64,000 nucleotides of DNA, from positions 2,537 through 66,536 of the forward strand of contig CAZZLQ010000001.1 of the NCBI GenBank assembly GCA_964655245.1. Direction: 5' to 3'. This document shows positions 22,447 through 33,522 of the stretch, piece by piece (position 1 is the first letter of the stretch; the number at the start of each line of letters is the position of its first letter). The position numbers and the translations under genes were made by a program. This DNA comes from an uncultured Bacteriovoracaceae bacterium. GTDB taxonomy: Bacteria > Bdellovibrionota > UBA2394. The notes beneath the pieces are model-generated. The model did no database searches. It was given only the letters and a program-made list of their open reading frames with translations, and was not told the origin of the DNA.

Positions 22447-22902
22447 ATGACAAAGGCCAAGGGGAAGAAATCAGGGAAGAAACTCAACCCACAAGGGGGG
22501 GATGCATTGAAAGCGGAAAATGCCGTATCGGCCGAATCGGTGGCATTGCAGTCCAATAAAATTGTGATCTGCAAGGCCCAGGGGTGCCATGACATTGCAA
22601 CCACGCAGAGTCATTGCCGGTTTCACTATCTCGCTGGCTGGCGTAAATCTAAGACCAAAGAGGCAAGAAAGAAGGGCAAAGAGCTCGAAGTCTACTTGTC
22701 GGATCTCAGTAGGAAGTTTCCTGAGGAGTTCCTCGAGAAGATCAGAGCAGAAGTCGATGAGTTGATCGATCGCGAAAGCCGCTCAGAAGAGGCCTCAGAA
22801 GACACCACAGAGCGATCTGGGGGCTTTTTTGATGGGATTGAGGGTGGTGGTGACGACGATATGGATACCATCATCAAGGGTCTAAAAGTCGAAGATTATT
22901 AG
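22447..22902 (+). CDS. Hypothetical small protein: Lys-rich N-terminus, putative Cys/His metal-binding knuckle, acidic C-terminal tail
   Basis: 151-aa ORF with MTKAKGKKSGKK at the start, C-x4-C-H ... H-C-x2-H in the middle (ICKAQGCHD...SHCRFH), and a D/E/G-rich end (GGGDDDMDT). Confidence 0.5.
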   Translation: MTKAKGKKSGKKLNPQGGDALKAENAVSAESVALQSNKIVICKAQGCHDIATTQSHCRFHYLAGWRKSKTKEARKKGKELEVYLSDLSRKFPEEFLEKIRAEVDELIDRESRSEEASEDTTERSGGFFDGIEGGGDDDMDTIIKGLKVEDY

Positions 22903-22950: not shown

Positions 22951-23706
22951 ATGGAAACCCAGGGTCTACGAATTCATGCATATTTAGCGCAAATGGGGCT
23001 GGCTTCTCGCCGTAAGGTCGAGGACTACATTCAGAAGGGCTATATTCAAGTCAACGGAAAGCCAGCTCGTCTGGGTCAGATTGTTCAGCCCGGCAAGGAC
23101 GCTCTAACGTTCAAAGGCAAGCAGCTGAACTTCCCCAAAATGAAAAAGATTGTCGTTGTGGCAGTAAACAAGCCACGAGGGGTTGTTAGCACCTCTGACG
23201 ATCCAGAACGGCGAGCTAAAGTTGTTGATATGGTTCCCAAGAGTTTTGGACGACTCTACCCCGTGGGTCGGCTCGATCTTATGTCCGAGGGGCTGATTCT
23301 GCTCACCAATGATGGCGATCTTTCTTACCGTTTGACTCATCCAAAGTTTGAGATTCCCAAAACCTACGAAGTGAAGATTCGGGGACGATGGGATGCAGGT
23401 AAGCAGGAGTATCTTGAAAAGGGTATTCGAATTGGAAAAGAAAAGTTCGAGCCTGCAAAGATTCTTTCGGTTCGTGAGGCCGCACGTCGTGAGGGCGTGG
23501 AGAAAACAATCATTACGATCCAGATTCACGAAGGTAAATATCACCATATTCGACGGCTCTTTGAGGCGCTCAAATGTCATGTCATTCGATTGAAGCGAGT
23601 TTCGATGGGTCCCGTGACAATTAAGGGCATCCCCCTGGGCGGTTACCGAGTTCTCTCGAAGGCGAGAGTCGAGGAGCTCCACCAGTTCGTGGGTAATGAA
23701 GCATGA
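22951..23706 (+). CDS. 23S/16S rRNA pseudouridine synthase, RsuA/RluB family (S4 domain plus catalytic domain)
   Basis: S4-like N-terminus (RIHAYLAQMGLASRRKVEDYI..G.I.VNG) and the catalytic YPVGRLDLMSEGLILLTNDG motif. Confidence 0.85.
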   Translation: METQGLRIHAYLAQMGLASRRKVEDYIQKGYIQVNGKPARLGQIVQPGKDALTFKGKQLNFPKMKKIVVVAVNKPRGVVSTSDDPERRAKVVDMVPKSFGRLYPVGRLDLMSEGLILLTNDGDLSYRLTHPKFEIPKTYEVKIRGRWDAGKQEYLEKGIRIGKEKFEPAKILSVREAARREGVEKTIITIQIHEGKYHHIRRLFEALKCHVIRLKRVSMGPVTIKGIPLGGYRVLSKARVEELHQFVGNEA

Positions 23707-24767
23707 GCTTTCCTTGGCAGGCGCTCAATGTCGTGTTCAATGGGGTTTCACCTCTTGATATCGACCATCTCGAGCTGAAGTCCGAGGCGGAGGCGCACCA
23801 GTTTATTTTGAGCTATGGATTTGATTTGTTTGAATCCAGCCATGTTAGCTATTTGGAGAAGGTTTATTCTGAAACGATCGACTTTATTGACGCGTACCTC
23901 TGCACAGACGAGGTGAAGATCCCCGCTCCACTACGCAAACTAAACGTTGCCTCTGAGCTGAAGTCCTTGCTGCTTTTGAGTTCAGGTTTGGAGCAGCTGC
24001 CCACGGGATGGAATCCCGAATGGAGACCTTGGGCCTGCGCTATTTTGAGGGTGATCCATGTCTCCTTGCACTTAAAAAGCGACCTTCGATTAAAGTATCT
24101 GCCCAAGATTAAACGGCAAACCGTTGATCGTTTTTCAGCTCATGTTCAAGAAGGCGCAGAGGGAATGTTTCTTGGCTTTGAGTCCGATAAAGTGAAGCTG
24201 GCTCGGTTTGAAAAGAAGCAGGCTAAGGTGAGAGACTCGGTGTTGCTTAAGCTTCTTCATAAGCCATCGGCCATTGCGCAGGAGATTCACGATCATATCG
24301 GTGTGAGATTTGTCACTGAAGGGCGCGTAGATGCTGTAAGAGTTGTACAATACTTGATTGCTCACCATCTACTTTCGTTTCCAAACGTGATGGCTGCTCG
24401 TTGCAGGAACACTTTGATTGATCTGCAGGAGTTTAAAAAGGTCGTTGAGTCTGTGCCTGCCGAAGGGCTGAACGAAAAAACGATCGATTCGGTACTTTCT
24501 TATCCAAAGCTCGAAGATCGACAGAATCAGTTTAGTTCGGAGCGCTACCGCTCATTGCAGTTTACAACCCGACAGTTGATCAGAATCCCCGTAGTGAGGA
24601 GAGGGGTGAAATCGGAAATGACCTTTTTCTTCCCGCTTGAGATTCAGATTATGGATTTGGCTTCCTATGAAGAATCTCTGACTGGAAAATCGGGTCATGC
24701 TGAGTACAAACAAAAGCAATTGGAGGCCGTCCGGCAGCGAGTCTTGAAAGGATTGAGATTGGTATGA
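23703..24767 (+). CDS. RelA/SpoT-domain (small-alarmone-synthetase-like nucleotidyltransferase) protein with a ~170-aa N-terminal domain of unknown function
   Basis: C-terminal half carries the ordered (p)ppGpp-synthetase-fold motifs: HKPSAIAQEI (cf. VKPVASILEK), DHIGVRFV (DxxGxR), ERYRSLQF (YRS.H) and LEIQIMDLASYEE...HAEYKQK (EIQIRT...H..YK). ATGA overlaps with rluB upstream and rimO downstream. Confidence 0.6.
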   Translation: MSFPWQALNVVFNGVSPLDIDHLELKSEAEAHQFILSYGFDLFESSHVSYLEKVYSETIDFIDAYLCTDEVKIPAPLRKLNVASELKSLLLLSSGLEQLPTGWNPEWRPWACAILRVIHVSLHLKSDLRLKYLPKIKRQTVDRFSAHVQEGAEGMFLGFESDKVKLARFEKKQAKVRDSVLLKLLHKPSAIAQEIHDHIGVRFVTEGRVDAVRVVQYLIAHHLLSFPNVMAARCRNTLIDLQEFKKVVESVPAEGLNEKTIDSVLSYPKLEDRQNQFSSERYRSLQFTTRQLIRIPVVRRGVKSEMTFFFPLEIQIMDLASYEESLTGKSGHAEYKQKQLEAVRQRVLKGLRLV

Positions 24768-26176
24768 GATGTCGAGTGGGTTTTGTGAGTCTAGGTTGTC
24801 CGAAAAACTTGGTTGATACTGAGAATATGATGCATTTGTTGGGCCAAAATGGAGCGCTGCTGACCGGAGATCAAAATCAGGCTGACATTGTCGTCATCAA
24901 TACCTGCGGTTTTTTGGAAGCGGCCAAGAATGAATCAATGTCAACGATTGGAGAGTTTATTGCGCTCAAAAAAAAGAAGAAGCTCAAGGGAGTTGTTGTC
25001 GCGGGATGCATGACCGAGCGGTATCTCGGTGTGATGAATGAGAAGTATCCCGAAGTGGATGCATTCATTCAGACTCGTGAGTTCTCCAAGATTGTTGATG
25101 TCGTTCATGCGATTGAGAATGGTGACGATGAGGCTCTGCGACGTCGAAGAGATTTGATCGGTGAGGTGGAGAGTCTTAAAGGGCATAGTGAGCTGACGGA
25201 TTTTGTTGAGCGGATACCTGGAGCGCGTTCCTATGCCTATGTCAAAATCGCTGAGGGCTGTAATCGAACCTGCAGCTTCTGCATTATTCCCAAGTTGAGA
25301 GGGAAGCTGCATAGCCGTTCTGTGGAAGGAATTGTGGATGAAGTTCGAAAGCTTGTTGAGCAGGGGGTCCACGAGGTTATTTTGATTGCTCAGGATCTAA
25401 CCTCATATGGTCGAGATCGTGCAGATGGAGCCAATTTGCTGGGACTAATGCGTGAGTTAGAGACGATTGAAGGTCTGAAATGGGTACGACTTCACTACAA
25501 CTATCCACGTTTCTTCACAGATGAGCTGATTGAGTTTCTTTCTACCTCGAGAGTTTTTTCAGGCTATCTCGATATTCCCTTTCAGCACATTTCGGACCGC
25601 GTGCTGAAGCAAATGCGCCGGCCCGAGACATCAGCTGAGATCAAATCGTTGGTGGAAAAGTTACGCTCAAAAATTCCCAACTTATCTCTACGATCGACAT
25701 TCATGGTTGGTTTTCCCGGAGAAACAGAACAGGACTTTGAGGAGCTTCTAGAGTTTGTGAAGTGGGCAGACTTGGATCACTTGGGGACGTTTAAGTATTG
25801 CCCTGAAGAGGGGACTCCTTCGGCAGGGTTTGAAAATCAAGTCCCTGAAGTGGTCAAGGAAGCCCGTTTTCATAAACTGATGATGCTTCAAAAGGGCATT
25901 CAAAAAAGAAAGCTTAAGGCTCAGTTAGAAAGTCATCGGACCGTTGTTGTTGATGCCTTCTCCGAAAAAACCAAACAGGGGCTGGTTTACGTGGGGAGGC
26001 ATTCAGGTCAATCGCCAGAGATTGATGGCGTGACTTATGTTTTGTCGGATTCCGAGCTCAAAACGGGCCAGTTTGTGGACGTTCAGCTCATTAAAATCAT
26101 GGGCGATTATGATCTGTTTGGAATGCCTAAAGTCGAGTTTGACTCTTTGGCCCAACCTCGGCGAAATCAAAGATAG
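24764..26176 (+). CDS. rimO: Ribosomal protein S12 methylthiotransferase (radical-SAM MiaB/RimO family)
   Basis: RVGFVSLGCPKNLVDTE N-terminal MTTase domain, CNRTCSFC radical-SAM cysteine triad and a C-terminal TRAM-like region. RimO-like rather than MiaB by the N-terminal sequence. Confidence 0.82.
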   Translation: MRCRVGFVSLGCPKNLVDTENMMHLLGQNGALLTGDQNQADIVVINTCGFLEAAKNESMSTIGEFIALKKKKKLKGVVVAGCMTERYLGVMNEKYPEVDAFIQTREFSKIVDVVHAIENGDDEALRRRRDLIGEVESLKGHSELTDFVERIPGARSYAYVKIAEGCNRTCSFCIIPKLRGKLHSRSVEGIVDEVRKLVEQGVHEVILIAQDLTSYGRDRADGANLLGLMRELETIEGLKWVRLHYNYPRFFTDELIEFLSTSRVFSGYLDIPFQHISDRVLKQMRRPETSAEIKSLVEKLRSKIPNLSLRSTFMVGFPGETEQDFEELLEFVKWADLDHLGTFKYCPEEGTPSAGFENQVPEVVKEARFHKLMMLQKGIQKRKLKAQLESHRTVVVDAFSEKTKQGLVYVGRHSGQSPEIDGVTYVLSDSELKTGQFVDVQLIKIMGDYDLFGMPKVEFDSLAQPRRNQR

Positions 26177-27036: not shown

Positions 27037-27837
27037 ATGGTTCGGCGAACACTAGTTTATGATGCAGCATCACTACTGCGCGTAAAGCGAGAGAAGGCGC
27101 GTGAGGAAGCGGCCAAGCTGGATCCTAAAGGTCTGGAGGCGGCGCCTTCAACGCAGCCGGACTCAAGCTTAGAGCCCGACTCTCCTATGCGTGTCTTCGA
27201 TCATGCGGATGAATTCGTGGAGGTGAATAAGCCTAAAGTGTCGCAAATGATTGGAATCATTGGGGAAATGAAGAAAATGGCTGAGGCCTCGACGAATTCG
27301 GCTCTTTCCGATGAGGACCGCAAGCAGCTCAACATTAGGTTTGTAGAGAAGCGATCGAGTATCGATCGAATGGCAACTGAAACCGAGTTTCTCGGAAGGA
27401 AACTTTTTAACGGAGATCTCATGCGTGGATCTTTAAAGATTCCTGTAGGGAAGGGGCCCCTTGATGTTGTGGAAGTGCGTTTTGAGTCACTGAAAAATGA
27501 TATGACAGGCCTTGAGGGGCAAAAGATCGATACGTTGGTGAACGCTCGTAACGCCCTGAGGGAGATGGATAACGTCTACGCCCGATTTCAGCTTGTTGGG
27601 ATGATGTTCAAAGCAAAAGAAGATGAAATCAACGTGAAGCGTAAGCAGTTCATCGATGAGAATCGTATTCCTGAGGAAGTGGCAAATGCTCGAAAGCTGA
27701 AAGCCATTCAGGAGGTCGCCAATAAGCGACAGGAAGTGCAGCGAATGACTCTGCATATTGAGTTGAAAGAAGAGCAAGAGAGAATCGCTGAGTTCGAGGG
27801 GAGAGAGCGGGCACTTCTCATCAATCGAAAAATCTAA
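27037..27837 (+). CDS. Divergent flagellin-fold (D0/D1-only) protein lacking the canonical N-terminal secretion/D0 segment
   Basis: The central region aligns motif-for-motif with flagellin N-domain D1 (ASTNSALSDEDRKQL..IDRMATETEFLGRKLFNG...IPVGKGPLD...GLE versus TNSQSDLDSIQ..IDRVSGQTQFNGVKVL...IQVGANDGE...GLD). The C-terminus resembles the flagellin C-terminal D1/D0 (KIDTLVNARNALREMDNVYARFQ...IDEN..EEVAN...KAIQE). The conserved GLRINSAKDDAAG block is absent. Confidence 0.5.
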   Translation: MVRRTLVYDAASLLRVKREKAREEAAKLDPKGLEAAPSTQPDSSLEPDSPMRVFDHADEFVEVNKPKVSQMIGIIGEMKKMAEASTNSALSDEDRKQLNIRFVEKRSSIDRMATETEFLGRKLFNGDLMRGSLKIPVGKGPLDVVEVRFESLKNDMTGLEGQKIDTLVNARNALREMDNVYARFQLVGMMFKAKEDEINVKRKQFIDENRIPEEVANARKLKAIQEVANKRQEVQRMTLHIELKEEQERIAEFEGRERALLINRKI

Positions 27838-27838
27838 G

Positions 27839-30235
27839 CTAATGACTCATGGAGATTTCGGCTGCAGTATGCTTCCTCAAGCTCTTGAGGGGCGTCACAA
27901 ATGTCTCCATCAGATTCGGGGGTAAATCAAAAACGTGAAGCAGTACTTCATCCATATCAACGACTGGATGAAACTTAAAACTCTTAAGGATAGAAGAGTC
28001 GATTTCAGAAAGTTCTCTGAGATTGTCCATGGGGTAGACAATTGTATCAACACCCGCTCGCTTTGCCCCCAAAAGCTTTTCCTTGAGTCCTCCAATAGGC
28101 AAGACTCGACCTCGCAAACTGACTTCACCGGTGAGGCCCACTCTACGATTTACTTTCCAGCCTTTGATGGCGGAGAGAATGGCCACCGTTAAAGCTGTTC
28201 CCGCTGAAGGGCCATCCTTTGGCGTAGCGCCTTCGGGAACGTGGATGTGCAGATCGTGTTTTGAAAAAAAATCTGGCTCAATTTCAAACAGGGTGGCTTT
28301 CGATCGGATGTAGCTAATTGCTGCTCGAGCAGACTCTTGCATCACTGAGCCCAGTTGGCCCGTGATTTGGACGTCACCTTTGCCTATCAGAGAGACGGCT
28401 TCGATTCGAAGAACTTCGCCACCCACTGGAGTCCATGCCAAACCAGTTGAAACGCCTACATCATCGATGGGGCCAAGCTCACTTCGTTTGAAACGGGGCG
28501 CACCAAGATATCTCTCCACAGCCTCCTCGGACCATGCTCGAGGGCTTGGATGCGGGATCCCTGAGCTCTCCTCCCGAACGATCTTGCGACAAATTTTAGA
28601 AATCTGCTTCTCAAGGTCTCTAACGCCAGCTTCGCGCGTGAACCGACGAACAATGTAGGCGATGTCCTTTTCTGCAAGAGCTAGATCAGTTTCAGAGAGC
28701 CCATGGTTTCTGAGAACCTTTGGAACAATATAGTTTTTAGCTATTTGAATCTTTTCATCTTCAGAGTAGCCACTCAGTTGGATGATCTCCATTCTATCCT
28801 TGAGGGGTTGTGATATGGAGTCTGTGAAGTTTGCTGTGCAGATAAAGAGAACTTTGGAGAGATCATACTCGAGTTCCAAATAGTGATCTGAAAAGTGTTT
28901 GTTTTGTTCAGGATCGAGAATCTCAAGCAATGCTGATGCGGGATCCCCTCGAAAATCAGATCCCATCTTGTCGATTTCATCTAGCAAGATCACCGGATTA
29001 CTCACTGAAGCCTTTCGAATTGCAGAGATCACGCGTCCAGGAAGAGCGCCGATGTAGGTTCTCCGGTGACCTCGAAGCTCAGCTTCATCTCGTACTCCAC
29101 CCAAAGAAATCTTTTCGAACTTTCTATTCAAGGATCGAGCAACCGAGCGAGCCAAAGATGTCTTTCCAACCCCAGGAGGTCCCATCAGGCACAGAATGGG
29201 CGATTTGTGCTGAGTCACTCGGGCCCTGACGGAGAGGAACTCTAGAATGCGATCTTTGGCATCTTGGATGCCGTAGTGGTCCTCATTAAGAATTCGCTCT
29301 GCCTGCAGAAGATCTTTGGAATCCTCTGATAGTTCATCCCACGGAAGATCAAGAATGAGGTCGACATAGGCCCTGACCATCTGAGCTTCGGCTGCGTGCC
29401 CACCTGCTTTCAAACGCTTGATTTCCTTCAGAGCTTTTTCCCTAGCGTAGGCTGGCATCTTCTTGGACTCTAACTTCTTTTCGAGTTCAACGGCTTCAGA
29501 GCGGGGGTCTAGATTTTCCTGTCCAAGCTCCTTCTGGATGGCGGCCATTTGCTCGTGGAGATAGTAATCACGATGAGATTTTTCAATCTGCTCCTTTACC
29601 TTGCCTCTGATTTTTCGATCCAGTTTCAGAATCTCAATCTCAGCCAAGATGAGCAGGCTCAAGGCTTCTAGGCGTTCGGGAGCGGGCAGAGTATCTAAAA
29701 TTTTCTGCTTATCTCTCAGTTTCACGGAGATTTGAGAGGCAATGACATTACAAAGGCGATGCGGAGATTCAAGACTGTCGAGGCTTCGGAAAACCTCGTC
29801 TAAGGGGCGGCCACTGTTTTTGAGATATGCCTCATAATGAGTCAACAGCGTTCTCATGAGAATACGTTCCGCACTTGTCGCCGTATGATCTTCATCAGGT
29901 AGACGCTCGACCGATGAAACCAGAAAGCCATCCGTGTCTCGGAGACTGTTGATCTTGGCTCGGAAAAGGCCCTCAACCACAACCTTGAGATTGCCTTCGG
30001 GCATTTTGGTCATGTGCTTGATTCTCGCAATCGTTCCAATGGAGTGGAGATGTTGAATGGCGGGATCTTGAACCTGCGGCTCGCTTTGAGTCACAAGAAA
30101 GACAATTCGGTCATTTCCATCGGCGACATCAATGGCTCTGAGTGATCGACTGCGACCCACATACAGAGAGACACTGGTGTTTGGAAAAACAACAACGTCA
30201 CGAAGTGGAAGTACGGGAAGAGCGCTTAGATTCAT
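27839..30235 (-). CDS. lon: ATP-dependent Lon protease
   Basis: 798 aa with a Lon N-domain, AAA+ Walker A (GPPGVGKTSL) and a C-terminal serine protease domain (PKDGPSAGTALT). Confidence 0.95.
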   Translation of the reverse strand: MNLSALPVLPLRDVVVFPNTSVSLYVGRSRSLRAIDVADGNDRIVFLVTQSEPQVQDPAIQHLHSIGTIARIKHMTKMPEGNLKVVVEGLFRAKINSLRDTDGFLVSSVERLPDEDHTATSAERILMRTLLTHYEAYLKNSGRPLDEVFRSLDSLESPHRLCNVIASQISVKLRDKQKILDTLPAPERLEALSLLILAEIEILKLDRKIRGKVKEQIEKSHRDYYLHEQMAAIQKELGQENLDPRSEAVELEKKLESKKMPAYAREKALKEIKRLKAGGHAAEAQMVRAYVDLILDLPWDELSEDSKDLLQAERILNEDHYGIQDAKDRILEFLSVRARVTQHKSPILCLMGPPGVGKTSLARSVARSLNRKFEKISLGGVRDEAELRGHRRTYIGALPGRVISAIRKASVSNPVILLDEIDKMGSDFRGDPASALLEILDPEQNKHFSDHYLELEYDLSKVLFICTANFTDSISQPLKDRMEIIQLSGYSEDEKIQIAKNYIVPKVLRNHGLSETDLALAEKDIAYIVRRFTREAGVRDLEKQISKICRKIVREESSGIPHPSPRAWSEEAVERYLGAPRFKRSELGPIDDVGVSTGLAWTPVGGEVLRIEAVSLIGKGDVQITGQLGSVMQESARAAISYIRSKATLFEIEPDFFSKHDLHIHVPEGATPKDGPSAGTALTVAILSAIKGWKVNRRVGLTGEVSLRGRVLPIGGLKEKLLGAKRAGVDTIVYPMDNLRELSEIDSSILKSFKFHPVVDMDEVLLHVFDLPPNLMETFVTPLKSLRKHTAAEISMSH

Positions 30236-30284
30236 ACTTCTATGAACATAAGCACATCCAAAGCGATGTCGAGGGCTTTAAGTC

Positions 30285-31544
30285 TTAGGCCGTTTCAGCC
30301 GCTTGTTTTTCCATCAAAAGAATGGGCTTTTCCTTCTTGAGGATCACGTCTTCATTGATGATCACCTCTTTAACGTCCGTTCGAGAGGGTATCTCATACA
30401 TAATGTCGACCATGGCATCCTCGAGAATGGCTCTTAAGCCCCTAGCTCCTGATTTACGCTCCAACGCCATCCGAGCGACCGCTCTTAGAGCATCTTCGGT
30501 GAACTTGAGTTTGACGTTCTCAAAGCCAAAAAGCTTTTGGTACTGACGTACAATCGCATTCTTGGGTTTTCTGAGAATATCGATCAGGGCCTCTTCATCG
30601 AGTTCTCGCAAAGTCGCAATCACGGGGATACGGCCAATGAACTCGGGGATCATTCCAAACTTCAGGAGATCCTGAGGTTCGATTTTCTCCAAGAGGTCGC
30701 CGACTTTTCGGTCTTTCTTCGAGGTTACAGTTCCACCGAAACCGATCGAGTTCTTACCCAATCGACGGGCGATGATTTCATCAAGGCCCACAAAGGCCCC
30801 ACCGCAGATAAAGAGAATATTGGTGGTATCGACTTTGAGAAACTCCTGTTGGGGATGCTTTCGTCCGCCTTTAGGGGGGACGTTGGCCATTGTTCCCTCA
30901 ACAATCTTGAGGAGGGCCTGCTGAACACCTTCTCCACTGACATCACGAGTGATGCTGGGGTTTTCGCCTTTTCTCGAAATCTTATCGATCTCATCGATAT
31001 AAACGATCCCACGCTGAGTCTTTTCAATATCGTAATCAGCGTTTTGCAGAAGGTTGAGAATGATATTTTCAACATCTTCACCAACATACCCAGCTTCTGT
31101 CAGGGTGGTGGCATCAACCATGGTGAAGGGCACTTTGAGAAGACGGGCCAAAGTTTGGGCTAAAAGTGTCTTTCCCGATCCAGTGGGGCCAATCAAGAGG
31201 ATGTTGGATTTCTGTAACTCGACATCATCCTTTGAACCTGTTTTGGCATTAATTCTTTTGTAATGGTTATGAACGGCAACCGAGAGAGTTCTCTTAGCTC
31301 TGTCTTGGCCGATTACATAGTCATCGAGAACTTTTTTGATTTCCGCAGGTTTTGGAACCTTAGCGGTTTCGGAGGGCAAGTCGTTGCTGTCGTATTCCTC
31401 GGCAATGATGTCATTACAGAGCTCAATACATTCATCGCAGATATAGACACTGGGTCCAGCAATGAGCTTTTTAACTTCGCTTTGATGCTTTCCACAGAAA
31501 GAACAACAAAGATCCCCGCCTCGATCTTCTTCTTTACGACTCAT
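30285..31544 (-). CDS. clpX: ATP-dependent Clp protease ATP-binding subunit ClpX
   Basis: N-terminal C4 zinc finger (CSFCGK...CDEC), Walker A GPTGSGKT and an IGF-like loop. Start chosen at the internal ATG at 31544 (AGGAGG Shine-Dalgarno upstream); the ORF-track start at 31595 would overlap clpP. Confidence 0.93.
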
Positions 31545-31557
31545 CCACCCCTCCTTG

Positions 31558-32202
31558 TTATTTCTTAGAAGTCGTCTCTGCGACTTGCGCAGCACGGCTT
31601 TCTACGATCTTATCCACAATTCCATAGCCTAAGGCGTCCTGAGCACTCATCCAGCGATCCCGGTCCGTATGGACCAGTATATCATCCATTCGCTGACCTG
31701 TATGCTTGGCCAAGATCTGATTCAGCTGCTCTCGCAGTCTCAAGATCTCTTTAGCTTGAATCTCGATGTCAGAGGCTTGGCCCTGAGCACCACCCAAAGG
31801 TTGGTGAATCATGACTCGAGAGTGGGGGAGAATAAACCTTTTGCCCTTGGTTCCCGCGGCCAACAAAACCGCTCCCATCGACGCTGCCATTCCCAGACAG
31901 ATCGTGGTTACAGGAGGCCTGATGTACTGAATGGTGTCGTAGATGGCCATTCCAGCGCTCACCGAGCCGCCAGGGCTGTTGATATACAGGTAGATATCCT
32001 GATCGGGATCCTCAGACTCCAAGAACAGCAGTTGAGCCACGATCAAATTGGCGATCTGATCGTCAATCGGAGTTCCTAGAAGAATAATCCGATCTCTGAG
32101 GAGTCGTGAGTAGATATCATAAGCTCGTTCGCCTCGGTTGGTTTGCTCAATAACGATTGGAACCATCGAGTTTGTAACGACTGACCTGCTATTTGCTTCC
32201 AT
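31558..32202 (-). CDS. clpP: ATP-dependent Clp protease proteolytic subunit ClpP
   Basis: ClpP catalytic context (GMAASMGA...H) and a 214-aa length. Confidence 0.94.
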
Positions 32203-32208
32203 AAAGAA

Positions 32209-33522
32209 CTAATCCTTTAATTTTATGGTAGCCTTCGAAAGCGCATAATCAAGGGATTTCTCATCTAGGATGTCGATCTTCAAGCGATCCATTCTCGAAA
32301 GTGATTCGTTGTCTTCTTTTGCAGAGTAGTAGGCCTTAATCTGTGCTACACTGTAGCCAGTTTTCGCGGCTGTTTCGGCCATTCTCTTTTCAAGATCGTC
32401 ACTCGAGACTTCAAAGTTTTGCTGCTTTGCGATGGCTTCCAAAATGTAGCTCAGTCGAATGTCGCGTTCAGCTTTTTTCATCGAGGAAGCGAGAAGAGCC
32501 TTTTCGTTTTCCTCGTTTTCTTCGTGAGGCACTCCCATTTGATGCATCATTTGATGAGCCTCTTGAGCAAGTCGACCTGCGAATTGCTGGACTTGTCTTT
32601 GGCTCACTTCAAATTGATTGTTGCTCACGAGCACATCGCCAACGGCATCACGTTTCGTTTTGCCAAGGTTGGCCTCGTTTCTTTGCTCCAACGTCGTGCG
32701 GATTTTTTGTTTGAGCTCGGTGATTCCAGAAACTTTTTCATCAATGAGTTTTGCAAACTCATCGTTGAGTTCAGGGAGTTTTCGCTCCTTCACGCCGGAA
32801 ACGGACACTGTGAAAGTGGCTGTCTTGCCCGCCAAAGTCTTTTCCCGATAGTCCTCGGGAAACTTGACTTCGAAGCTCTTCGTTTCATCCTTTTTCATTC
32901 CGACAATGCCGGCTTCAAAGTCAGGGAGATAGCGGTTCTCGCCAAGAATGATCGTATGGGATTCGGACTTGAGCATGGGATTATCCACGCCATCAACGGT
33001 TCCCGAAAAACTAGCGACAGCGCAGTCATTCGTGCCCACTTTGTGGTTTTCGGCGGCGTCAGCAAAGGTGACTTCTGCCTTTTGAATGGCCTCAAGCTCT
33101 TGAGCGACTTCGCTGTCTGAAACAGATTTGGCTTTTTGAACTTCAACGGATAGGCCGTCGAGCTTGAGATTGCTAATCTTGGGTTTCAAATGCAATTCAA
33201 CCTCAAAGGTAAAATCCTTGGCTTCGCTAGGGAGATCCGTTGCAAGCAACGAAGGAGGGAGAGCGAGATCCAATTTGTGTTCCTCAATAGCCTTGCCCAA
33301 AAACTCGGCAATCAATCGTTCAGAAAGATCAGCCAACGCTTCATCGCCATACATTTGTTTGACGACATTCGTAGGAGCTTTGCCGGGACGAAATCCAGGA
33401 ACCTTGGCTCGTTTGGCTAGGGTTGCAAAGAAACTGTTCATGCGCTCGGAGACAACGGGCTTTGGAACAGAAACTTTGATGGTCGCTTCGACTGAACTTT
33501 TGTGCTGGATGTTTGAATTCAT
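32209..33522 (-). CDS. tig: Trigger factor
   Basis: 437 aa with an N-terminal ribosome-binding GFRPGKAP motif and a central FKBP-like PPIase region; classic tig-clpP-clpX-lon order. Confidence 0.9.
   Translation of the reverse strand: MNSNIQHKSSVEATIKVSVPKPVVSERMNSFFATLAKRAKVPGFRPGKAPTNVVKQMYGDEALADLSERLIAEFLGKAIEEHKLDLALPPSLLATDLPSEAKDFTFEVELHLKPKISNLKLDGLSVEVQKAKSVSDSEVAQELEAIQKAEVTFADAAENHKVGTNDCAVASFSGTVDGVDNPMLKSESHTIILGENRYLPDFEAGIVGMKKDETKSFEVKFPEDYREKTLAGKTATFTVSVSGVKERKLPELNDEFAKLIDEKVSGITELKQKIRTTLEQRNEANLGKTKRDAVGDVLVSNNQFEVSQRQVQQFAGRLAQEAHQMMHQMGVPHEENEENEKALLASSMKKAERDIRLSYILEAIAKQQNFEVSSDDLEKRMAETAAKTGYSVAQIKAYYSAKEDNESLSRMDRLKIDILDEKSLDYALSKATIKLKD

Follow-up and report, generated by a model that had tools for sequence, protein, structure and literature searches.

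The DNA examined here is a stretch of 64,000 nucleotides, to which we refer as the window, from an uncultured Bacteriovoracaceae bacterium. On its + strand, between a gene encoding an rRNA pseudouridine synthase and rimO, lies an open reading frame (ORF; 23703..24767) which, as stated in an original prediction made from the sequence and borne out by the ORF list of the window, starts with ATG and codes for 354 amino acids (aa). The encoded protein, designated X in the following, scores 318.0 bits against TIGR04562 (cut-off 140) and 310.3 bits against TIGR04552 (cut-off 125) of NCBIfam, the match comprising residues 2-348. X is a member of this curated family TIGR04562/TIGR04552 (hereafter “the family”), which is already catalogued but carries no assigned function. 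The initial impression of an unfamiliar arrangement has to be qualified accordingly, the family being known to curators though never studied. The features of X, whose C-terminal part resembles the synthetase domain of RelA/SpoT homologues (RSH), are as follows:

23703..24767, + strand: X, TIGR04562/TIGR04552-family protein, helical N-terminal domain followed by a divergent RSH synthetase-like domain (NCBIfam, 118 homologues, AlphaFold2 model)
23703..24143, + strand: all-helical N-terminal domain, aa 1-147, without known relative
24030..24083, + strand: conserved helix W110-A-C112-x6-H119-x3-H123-x3-D127 (116-sequence conservation; helix 105-125 in the model)
24144..24764, + strand: RSH synthetase-like domain of nucleotidyltransferase fold, aa 148-354
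24225..24263, + strand: ATP-phosphate-binding motif K175-x3-S179-x3-K183-x3-K187, aligned to YwaC 'KSfeSIvnKL' and RelA 'RPKHIYSIWRKM'
24291..24308, + strand: D197-x2-G200-x-R202, Mg2+-binding catalytic Asp and adenine-stacking Arg, aligned to RelSeq D264 and RelA 'DVRAVR'
24525..24560, + strand: acceptor-binding G-loop region N275...Y282-R-S-L-Q286 (hhalign to RelA 'PKxNGYQSIH')
24639..24656, + strand: E313-I-Q315-I-M-D318, catalytic Glu motif (canonical EIQIRT), aligned to RelSeq P321-I-E323-I-Q-I-R-T and RelA
24696..24710, + strand: H332-x2-Y335-K336, ribose/ATP contact in RSH enzymes, aligned to RelSeq 'AAHWAYKK' and RelA 'AAHWKYK'

The C-terminal domain of X (aa 148-354) has the RSH synthetase fold. 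The sole Pfam family matched by X is RelA_SpoT (PF04607; E 7.7e-4), the match extending from residue 175 to 338 and covering profile positions 4-111 of 113. Among the 118 homologues of X which a database search brought up, about one quarter carry a precomputed PF04607 match, and when 44 diverse members were scanned singly, 32 of them matched RelA_SpoT at E < 0.01 (best value 7.2e-7) with no other Pfam family recurring. Searching the PDB sequences with the family profile places RSH enzymes on top, namely B. subtilis YwaC (6fgk), RelSeq (1vj7) and M. tuberculosis Rel (5xnx); in this alignment D197 corresponds to RelSeq D264 and P311-E313-I-Q315 to RelSeq P321-E323-I-Q325. Comparison with the RelA profile by hhalign, for which both profiles were trimmed to the domain before a colinear alignment appeared, gave a probability of 81% (E 1.2e-5), the relaxed alignment running colinearly through all five motifs. 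An AlphaFold2 model of X calculated from a 44-sequence alignment reached a mean predicted local distance difference test score (pLDDT) of 92 and a predicted template modelling score of 0.87, and the 50 best Foldseek matches of this model are all RSH proteins, which outrank all other folds. The original prediction had assigned a RelA/SpoT synthetase fold to X and had named the lack of a profile match and the loss of the catalytic Asp and Glu as the outcomes that would speak against it. What was found is a profile match, agreement by Foldseek, and intact D197, E313 and ATP-binding residues.

The conservation of the motifs, given here and below for an alignment of 116 homologous sequences, is striking at those positions which serve donor binding and catalysis. 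The functions of the equivalent positions are known from the structure of RelP (PMC5794853), in which the ATP phosphates are bound by K80, S84, K88 and R91 and the Mg2+ by D107 and E174, while the adenine is stacked by R112 and the ribose contacted by H190; Tyr151 of the G-loop is critical for binding of the guanosine substrate. The basic motif recognising the donor ATP, R/K-x-K-x3-S-x3-K, is kept in X as K175-x3-S179-x3-K183, which sits just ahead of the segment HKPSAIAQEI; K175 and K183 are conserved in 100%, S179 in 97% and K187 in 93% of the sequences. The Arg located two positions before the first Lys (R78 in RelP) is not conserved, while K172, three positions before it, is present in 99%. 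D197, G200 and R202 are found in all sequences, as are E313, Q315 and D318, the Arg-Thr of EIQIRT being represented by Met-Asp in X with the Asp invariant. The spacing of 19 residues between E313 and H332 equals that in RelSeq. H332 and R290 are conserved in 99%, Y335 and K336 in 100%. According to these alignments, X keeps all those residues with which RelP, RelQ and Rel bind catalytic Mg2+ and the ATP donor (K175, S179, K183, K187, D197, R202, E313 and H332). All motifs quoted in the original prediction are present, namely HKPSAIAQEI, D197-H-I-G200-V-R202, Y282-R-S284-L-Q286-F, L-E313-I-Q315-I-M-D318 and H332-A-E-Y335-K336, and the proposed check on the catalytic Asp, Glu and Arg finds D197, E313 and R202 without exception. 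Since the motifs are colinear with those of RelA, RelSeq and RelP and since their key residues are mostly invariant, they do not represent chance matches.

The acceptor side of the domain is altered. A length-variable insertion of about 50 residues separates the strand/helix of the DxxGxR motif from the acceptor loop. Within this loop, hhalign pairs N275, Y282, S284 and Q286 with the Asn, Tyr, Ser and His of RelA 'PKxNGYQSIH', respectively. N275 is conserved in 99% of the sequences and position 282 is Tyr in 94% and Phe otherwise. The aromatic residue of the Y-x-S-x-H motif is kept, with Y282 and S284 aligning to the Y-Q-S of RelA, and Y282 is the residue predicted to stack on the acceptor base. 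About five extra residues, however, are present between N275 and Y282, and Q286 takes the place of the canonical His. The C-terminal domain of X has a pI of 9.5, the median of the family being 7.3.

In the AlphaFold2 model, residues 1-147 at the N-terminus fold into a domain of eight helices, and the secondary structure of the model places the beginning of the synthetase-like domain near residue 148. The original prediction had rightly divided X into two parts with the motifs residing in the C-terminal one, but had put the border at about residue 170. It had called the N-terminal part uncharacterised, and indeed this domain yields no Pfam match and no PDB sequence match. One of its helices is strongly conserved and harbours W110 (96%), C112 (98%), H119 (100%), H123 (97%) and D127 (87%), with C112, H119, H123 and D127 spaced i, i+7, i+11 and i+15. 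This Cys/His/His/Asp helix is a candidate metal-binding or regulatory site. A further conserved segment, G14-x-S16-x2-D19, is located close to the N-terminus (23703..23762 of the window covers aa 1-19). Residues 1-19 show pLDDT values above 90 in the full-length model and below 50 when the N-terminal domain is modelled alone; this loss of confidence suggests that the G14/S16/D19 segment may dock on the catalytic domain.

A profile search for the N-terminal domain in other architectures found none and returned two extra proteins only. One of these is a fragment on a 731-bp contig while the other, P0264, probably derives from a split gene, so that we rejected the notion of a mobile module. In the latter locus (L088, 4001..5300), which resides on a long-read contig of 4x coverage, an ORF of 228 aa comprising only the N-terminal domain is followed by an overlapping ORF of 206 aa. 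P0264 is most likely the 5' part of a frameshifted full-length family gene and, as such, an artefact. An acyltransferase gene again lies 3' of the split family gene in L088.

The genes flanking that of X are:

22951..23706, + strand: S4-domain rRNA pseudouridine synthase of the RsuA/RluB/RluF group (Pfam S4 and PseudoU_synth_2, TIGR00093)
24764..26176, + strand: RimO, ribosomal protein S12 methylthiotransferase (TIGR01125; Pfam UPF0004, Radical_SAM and TRAM_2)

Both junctions consist of a 4-nt ATGA overlap, as claimed originally and as can be read directly in the sequence: the stop of the upstream gene reads ...GCATGAGC and is shared with the start of X, while the stop of X is shared with the start of 24764..26176 (...GGTATGAGATG). 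The upstream synthase passes TIGR00093 at 150 bits. Its score against the RluB equivalog, however, is 126.8 bits at a cut-off of 290, and the RluF and RsuA equivalogs likewise stay below their cut-offs. The name rluB previously given to this gene is therefore not established, and we refer to it as an S4 synthase of the RsuA/RluB/RluE/RluF group. In contrast, the rimO assignment stands, as the TIGR01125 equivalog is matched at 459.7 bits with a cut-off of 357. GC content and third-position GC content of the X gene match those of the window (0.472 versus 0.481), so that it looks native. Promoter and terminator scans of the region 19.5-27.2 kb yielded nothing above shuffled expectation; the stretch from the synthase to rimO contains no intergenic terminator-like site, and the two sites predicted there both fall within coding sequence. 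The operon boundaries consequently rest on gene spacing only.

From 11 to 27837 of the window all ORFs of at least 200 aa are located on the + strand, the genes identified, which begin at about 19.7 kb, following each other in the order rpsK, rpoA, rplQ, thioredoxin-like, unknown, pseudouridine synthase, X, RimO, DUF502 and flagellin-like. A block on the opposite strand follows (27839..33522), whose ORF lengths and positions fit ClpX, ClpP and trigger factor of the syntenic locus L085 as well as Lon and ClpX of L084. No canonical Rel and no paralogue of X was found in the window. The unknown gene ahead of the synthase (22447..22902, + strand) encodes a Cys/His-rich protein of 151 aa (…CKAQGCHDIATTQSHCRFHY…) without Pfam or PADLOC match; its NCBIfam match is at noise level (12.9 bits, E 0.088) and its PHROG matches to HNH proteins are weak (E ~0.04). 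L084 and L085 likewise have a gene for 146-151 aa without Pfam match in this position, flanked by the thioredoxin-like gene and that of the pseudouridine synthase, so that it is a conserved unknown. The 266-aa protein encoded by 27037..27837 (+ strand) shows only a partial Flagellin_N match (35 bits) and recurs in the syntenic loci at the corresponding position; a short protein of flagellin-like or FliS-binding-like type may be encoded here.

Relatives of X occur in at least 587 species genomes, as judged from a pattern-based scan of one genome per species. The record titles mostly name Bdellovibrionota, Bacteriovoracaceae, Oligoflexia and Myxococcales, with further relatives in Vulcanimicrobiota, Sericytochromatia, Armatimonadetes, Sumerlaeota and metagenome-assembled genomes (MAGs) of UBP9. 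An exhaustive profile search through 1.84 billion cluster representatives (50%-identity clusters) returned 939 at E <= 1e-3, and among the best 150 of these nearly all match the whole two-domain profile. The order synthase-X-rimO is restricted to the closest relatives, which are L001 (88% identity; a Bacteriovoracaceae MAG and the closest genome locus), L002 (57%), L084/P0011 (55%) and L085/P0022 (47%). Identical copies are present on short metagenomic contigs. The syntenic block of this clade comprises rpsM-rpsK-rpoA-rplQ, the thioredoxin-like gene, the unknown gene of ~150 aa, the pseudouridine synthase, X, rimO, DUF502 and a flagellin-N-like gene and ends with ClpX on the other strand, ClpX being preceded by Lon in L084. 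Order and tight spacing are the same in all four loci; in L085 the interval from X to DUF502 is devoid of called genes, but its length of 1.5 kb fits rimO. In none of the 78 other loci fetched (identity of 39% or less) is a pseudouridine synthase or rimO present within 6 kb.

In other Bdellovibrionota clades, different neighbours recur, which we counted in the 70 loci that could be parsed. Two pairs of genes follow the family gene on the same strand, one composed of a GYF_2 protein (17 loci) and a PlsB-like glycerol-3-phosphate acyltransferase (15 loci), the other of an unannotated 394-aa protein (18 loci) and a 650-aa 4Fe-4S protein (22 loci). These pairs are seen in L005, L015, L018, L020 and some 35 further loci. 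Upstream, the opposite strand often encodes PgpA (16 loci) and, in 6 loci, a 4HBT thioesterase, and DJ-1/PfpI lies downstream in some loci. The PlsB-like, PgpA and thioesterase genes lend this neighbourhood a flavour of phospholipid metabolism which may or may not be functional. The gene of a more distant, short-form homologue adjoins a peroxiredoxin gene. The view of the original prediction that X is wired into a ribosome-modification operon is thus correct with respect to the tight packing between synthase and rimO, but this context pertains to the closest clade and not to the family as a whole. It therefore reflects synteny of one lineage rather than a family-wide functional link, and although it supports co-expression with translation genes in the present organism it is not usable for inferring the function of the family.

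Compared with the small alarmone synthetases (SAS) RelQ and RelP (SAS1/SAS2; PDB 5dec, 6fgk, 6ewz), to which X is only 18-20% identical, X possesses the additional helical domain of 147 aa at its N-terminus, the variable insertion of ~50 residues and a longer G-loop, and it has Gln for the His of the Y-x-S-x-H motif and EIQIMD for EIQIRT. It likewise departs from the long RSH enzymes Rel, RelA and SpoT (PDB 8acu, 1vj7, 5xnx), as its synthetase domain forms the C-terminal end of the protein and is not followed by the ribosome-sensing TGS and ACT domains; the architecture of an N-terminal HD or pseudo-HD hydrolase combined with C-terminal TGS and ACT is not found in X. The accessible parts of the tables of the 2011 RSH survey list B. 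bacteriovorus with Rel only and show the 'bdRel' entries to be beta-proteobacterial (Acidovorax, Ralstonia). They also contain one unclassified 'SYNTH[S]' entry each for M. xanthus (YP_633016.1) and Sorangium, which might or might not represent the TIGR04552 homologue. The examples of MixRel in the corresponding parts of the 2019/2020 RSH update are entries from Klebsiella, Janthinobacterium and Mycobacterium in a table of prophage-region predictions. As far as these tables are readable, they give no support for classifying X as bdRel or MixRel.

X combines an RSH synthetase fold with an extra domain in a manner resembling the fused CapRel and is not built like the long RSH enzymes, which brings to mind the toxic SAS (toxSAS) enzymes of toxin-antitoxin or antiphage defence modules, an option which had been raised in the original prediction. 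We consider it very improbable for X. In contrast to CapRel, FaRel2 and Tas1, X has neither an antitoxin or immunity partner nor a match to a defence model, its gene is located in the core genome within conserved synteny, and its structural similarity to the toxSAS enzymes is lower than that to housekeeping RSH proteins. With overlaps at both of its junctions, the gene leaves no space in which an antitoxin ORF could be accommodated. The search for an overlooked small antitoxin-like ORF, which had been proposed along with this option, found none: the antisense ORFs within X are 55-80 aa long, and no conserved small partner emerged across the 70 loci, in which ORFs of at least 80 aa were examined. 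PADLOC returned only a Cas12d match of 12 bits, which is noise, PHROGs returned nothing significant, and the GC content is native. Moreover, the family member of Bdellovibrio sp. NC01, DOE51_RS08710, was hit by a frameshifting one-base indel which did no more than rise to high frequency in one evolved population (PMC9888234). This suggests that the gene may be dispensable under those evolution conditions.

Two further explanations assign a different role to X. X might be directed at translation and pyrophosphorylate the 3' end of an RNA, either the CCA of tRNA, as FaRel2 and CapRel do, or the end of an rRNA or a precursor, or it might act at the ribosome, its linkage to the synthase and RimO then reflecting a shared role in modification. 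The overlapping genes directly downstream of ribosomal-protein operons, the persistence of this synteny down to 47% identity and the basic C-terminal domain are consistent with this idea, as is the remodelled acceptor loop: the replacement of the Arg of EIQIRT by Met, followed by the invariant Asp, might shrink the positive acceptor patch, which in FaRel2, an enzyme modifying tRNA, does not attain the size seen in alarmone synthetases (PMC11782079). Yet, none of the other 78 loci shows this context, their neighbours including genes of lipid metabolism (PlsB-like, PgpA, thioesterase) and genes for GYF_2, Fe-S and DJ-1 proteins, and the median pI of 7.3 means that the family is not generally basic. 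In addition, the known tRNA-pyrophosphorylating RSH enzymes are toxins in need of an antitoxin, which is missing at X. On balance, we think this explanation unlikely. Alternatively, X may not be a pyrophosphokinase at all but use the nucleotidyltransferase fold for other chemistry, such as nucleotidyl transfer, or as a ligand-binding regulator which keeps the ATP site. This would agree with the weak sequence similarity to RSH enzymes and with the invariant family-specific residues N236, D318 and H119, for which there is no RSH counterpart. The motif set, however, is of the RSH type, with a single Asp plus Glu and EIQI...H..YK in place of the DxD of classical nucleotidyltransferases, RSH matches outrank all other folds, and a pseudoenzyme would hardly have kept all of the catalytic residues invariant. 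We therefore regard this explanation as rather improbable.

The weighing of these alternatives leads us to assume that X is probably an active, chromosomal, SAS-like RSH pyrophosphokinase which is very divergent, its N-terminal domain being novel and its acceptor site remodelled. Its native GC content, the wide spread of the family with both domains kept, the lack of an antitoxin-like partner and the lack of defence or phage matches all speak for a housekeeping character. X would bind ATP-Mg2+ and hand over its beta,gamma-pyrophosphate to an acceptor, which would be modified at the 3'-OH of the ribose. Most likely, a free purine nucleotide would play this part, so that GDP/GTP would be converted to (p)ppGpp or ADP/ATP to (pp)pApp, and X would represent a second, chromosomal and non-toxic alarmone synthetase beside the canonical Rel of these bacteria. 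Because of the remodelled acceptor loop, with its about five extra residues, the exchange of His for Q286 and that of EIQIRT for EIQIMD, the choice of acceptor may differ from that of classical (p)ppGpp synthetases. The N-terminal helical domain may regulate or complete the active site. In the present lineage, where the gene is situated just downstream of the ribosomal alpha operon, it would share a transcript and translational coupling with rimO and the pseudouridine synthase gene, and its expression would then follow that of the translation machinery.

Several observations weigh against X being such an enzyme. The PF04607 score of X itself, 20.2 bits, lies under the gathering threshold of 27, even though the match proposed as a check in the original prediction extends across nearly the whole profile. 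A phmmer search with X against the PDB sequences gave noise only, no match to E. coli RelA was obtained by phmmer or tblastn in pairwise comparison, and when the untrimmed full-length family profile was compared by hhalign with this RelA or with an alignment of 25 RelA sequences, nothing but the EIQI...YK block was aligned. As the acceptor site is altered, synthesis of (p)ppGpp is not assured and another product could be made. Finally, the family is uncharacterised, the only mentions of TIGR04552/TIGR04562 members found in the literature being those of DOE51_RS08710 and of M. xanthus MXAN_4858. Insertions in the latter gene (TIGR04552) behaved like weak gliding-motility mutants in a transposon sequencing screen of development (bioRxiv 10.64898/2026.08.28.747804).

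A more far-reaching proposal, which we put forward tentatively and regard as possible though somewhat doubtful, is that predatory and social bacteria (Bdellovibrionota, Myxococcota and several candidate phyla) possess in TIGR04552/62 a second lineage of RSH pyrophosphokinases, which has been overlooked so far and is passed on mainly by vertical descent. The remodelled acceptor loop of these enzymes would lead to a product or an acceptor other than that of classical (p)ppGpp synthesis, and their unique N-terminal domain with its Cys/His/His/Asp helix would serve as a metal or redox sensor gating the active site. If so, Bdellovibrio-type predators, listed with Rel as their single RSH in the accessible part of the 2011 survey, would have two alarmone-type inputs to their signalling instead of one.

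RSH enzymes control the stringent response, persistence, antiphage defence and interbacterial toxicity. To our knowledge, each RSH subfamily newly studied so far gave new chemistry, for instance the synthesis of (pp)pApp or the pyrophosphorylation of tRNA. The family of X combines an intact catalytic core with a changed acceptor loop and a domain without relatives, and it is widespread in predatory Bdellovibrionota and Myxococcota. Identification of its product would add either a second source of alarmones to the biology of these predators or another substrate to the repertoire of RSH enzymes, and would give a function to a curated family which is presently without one.

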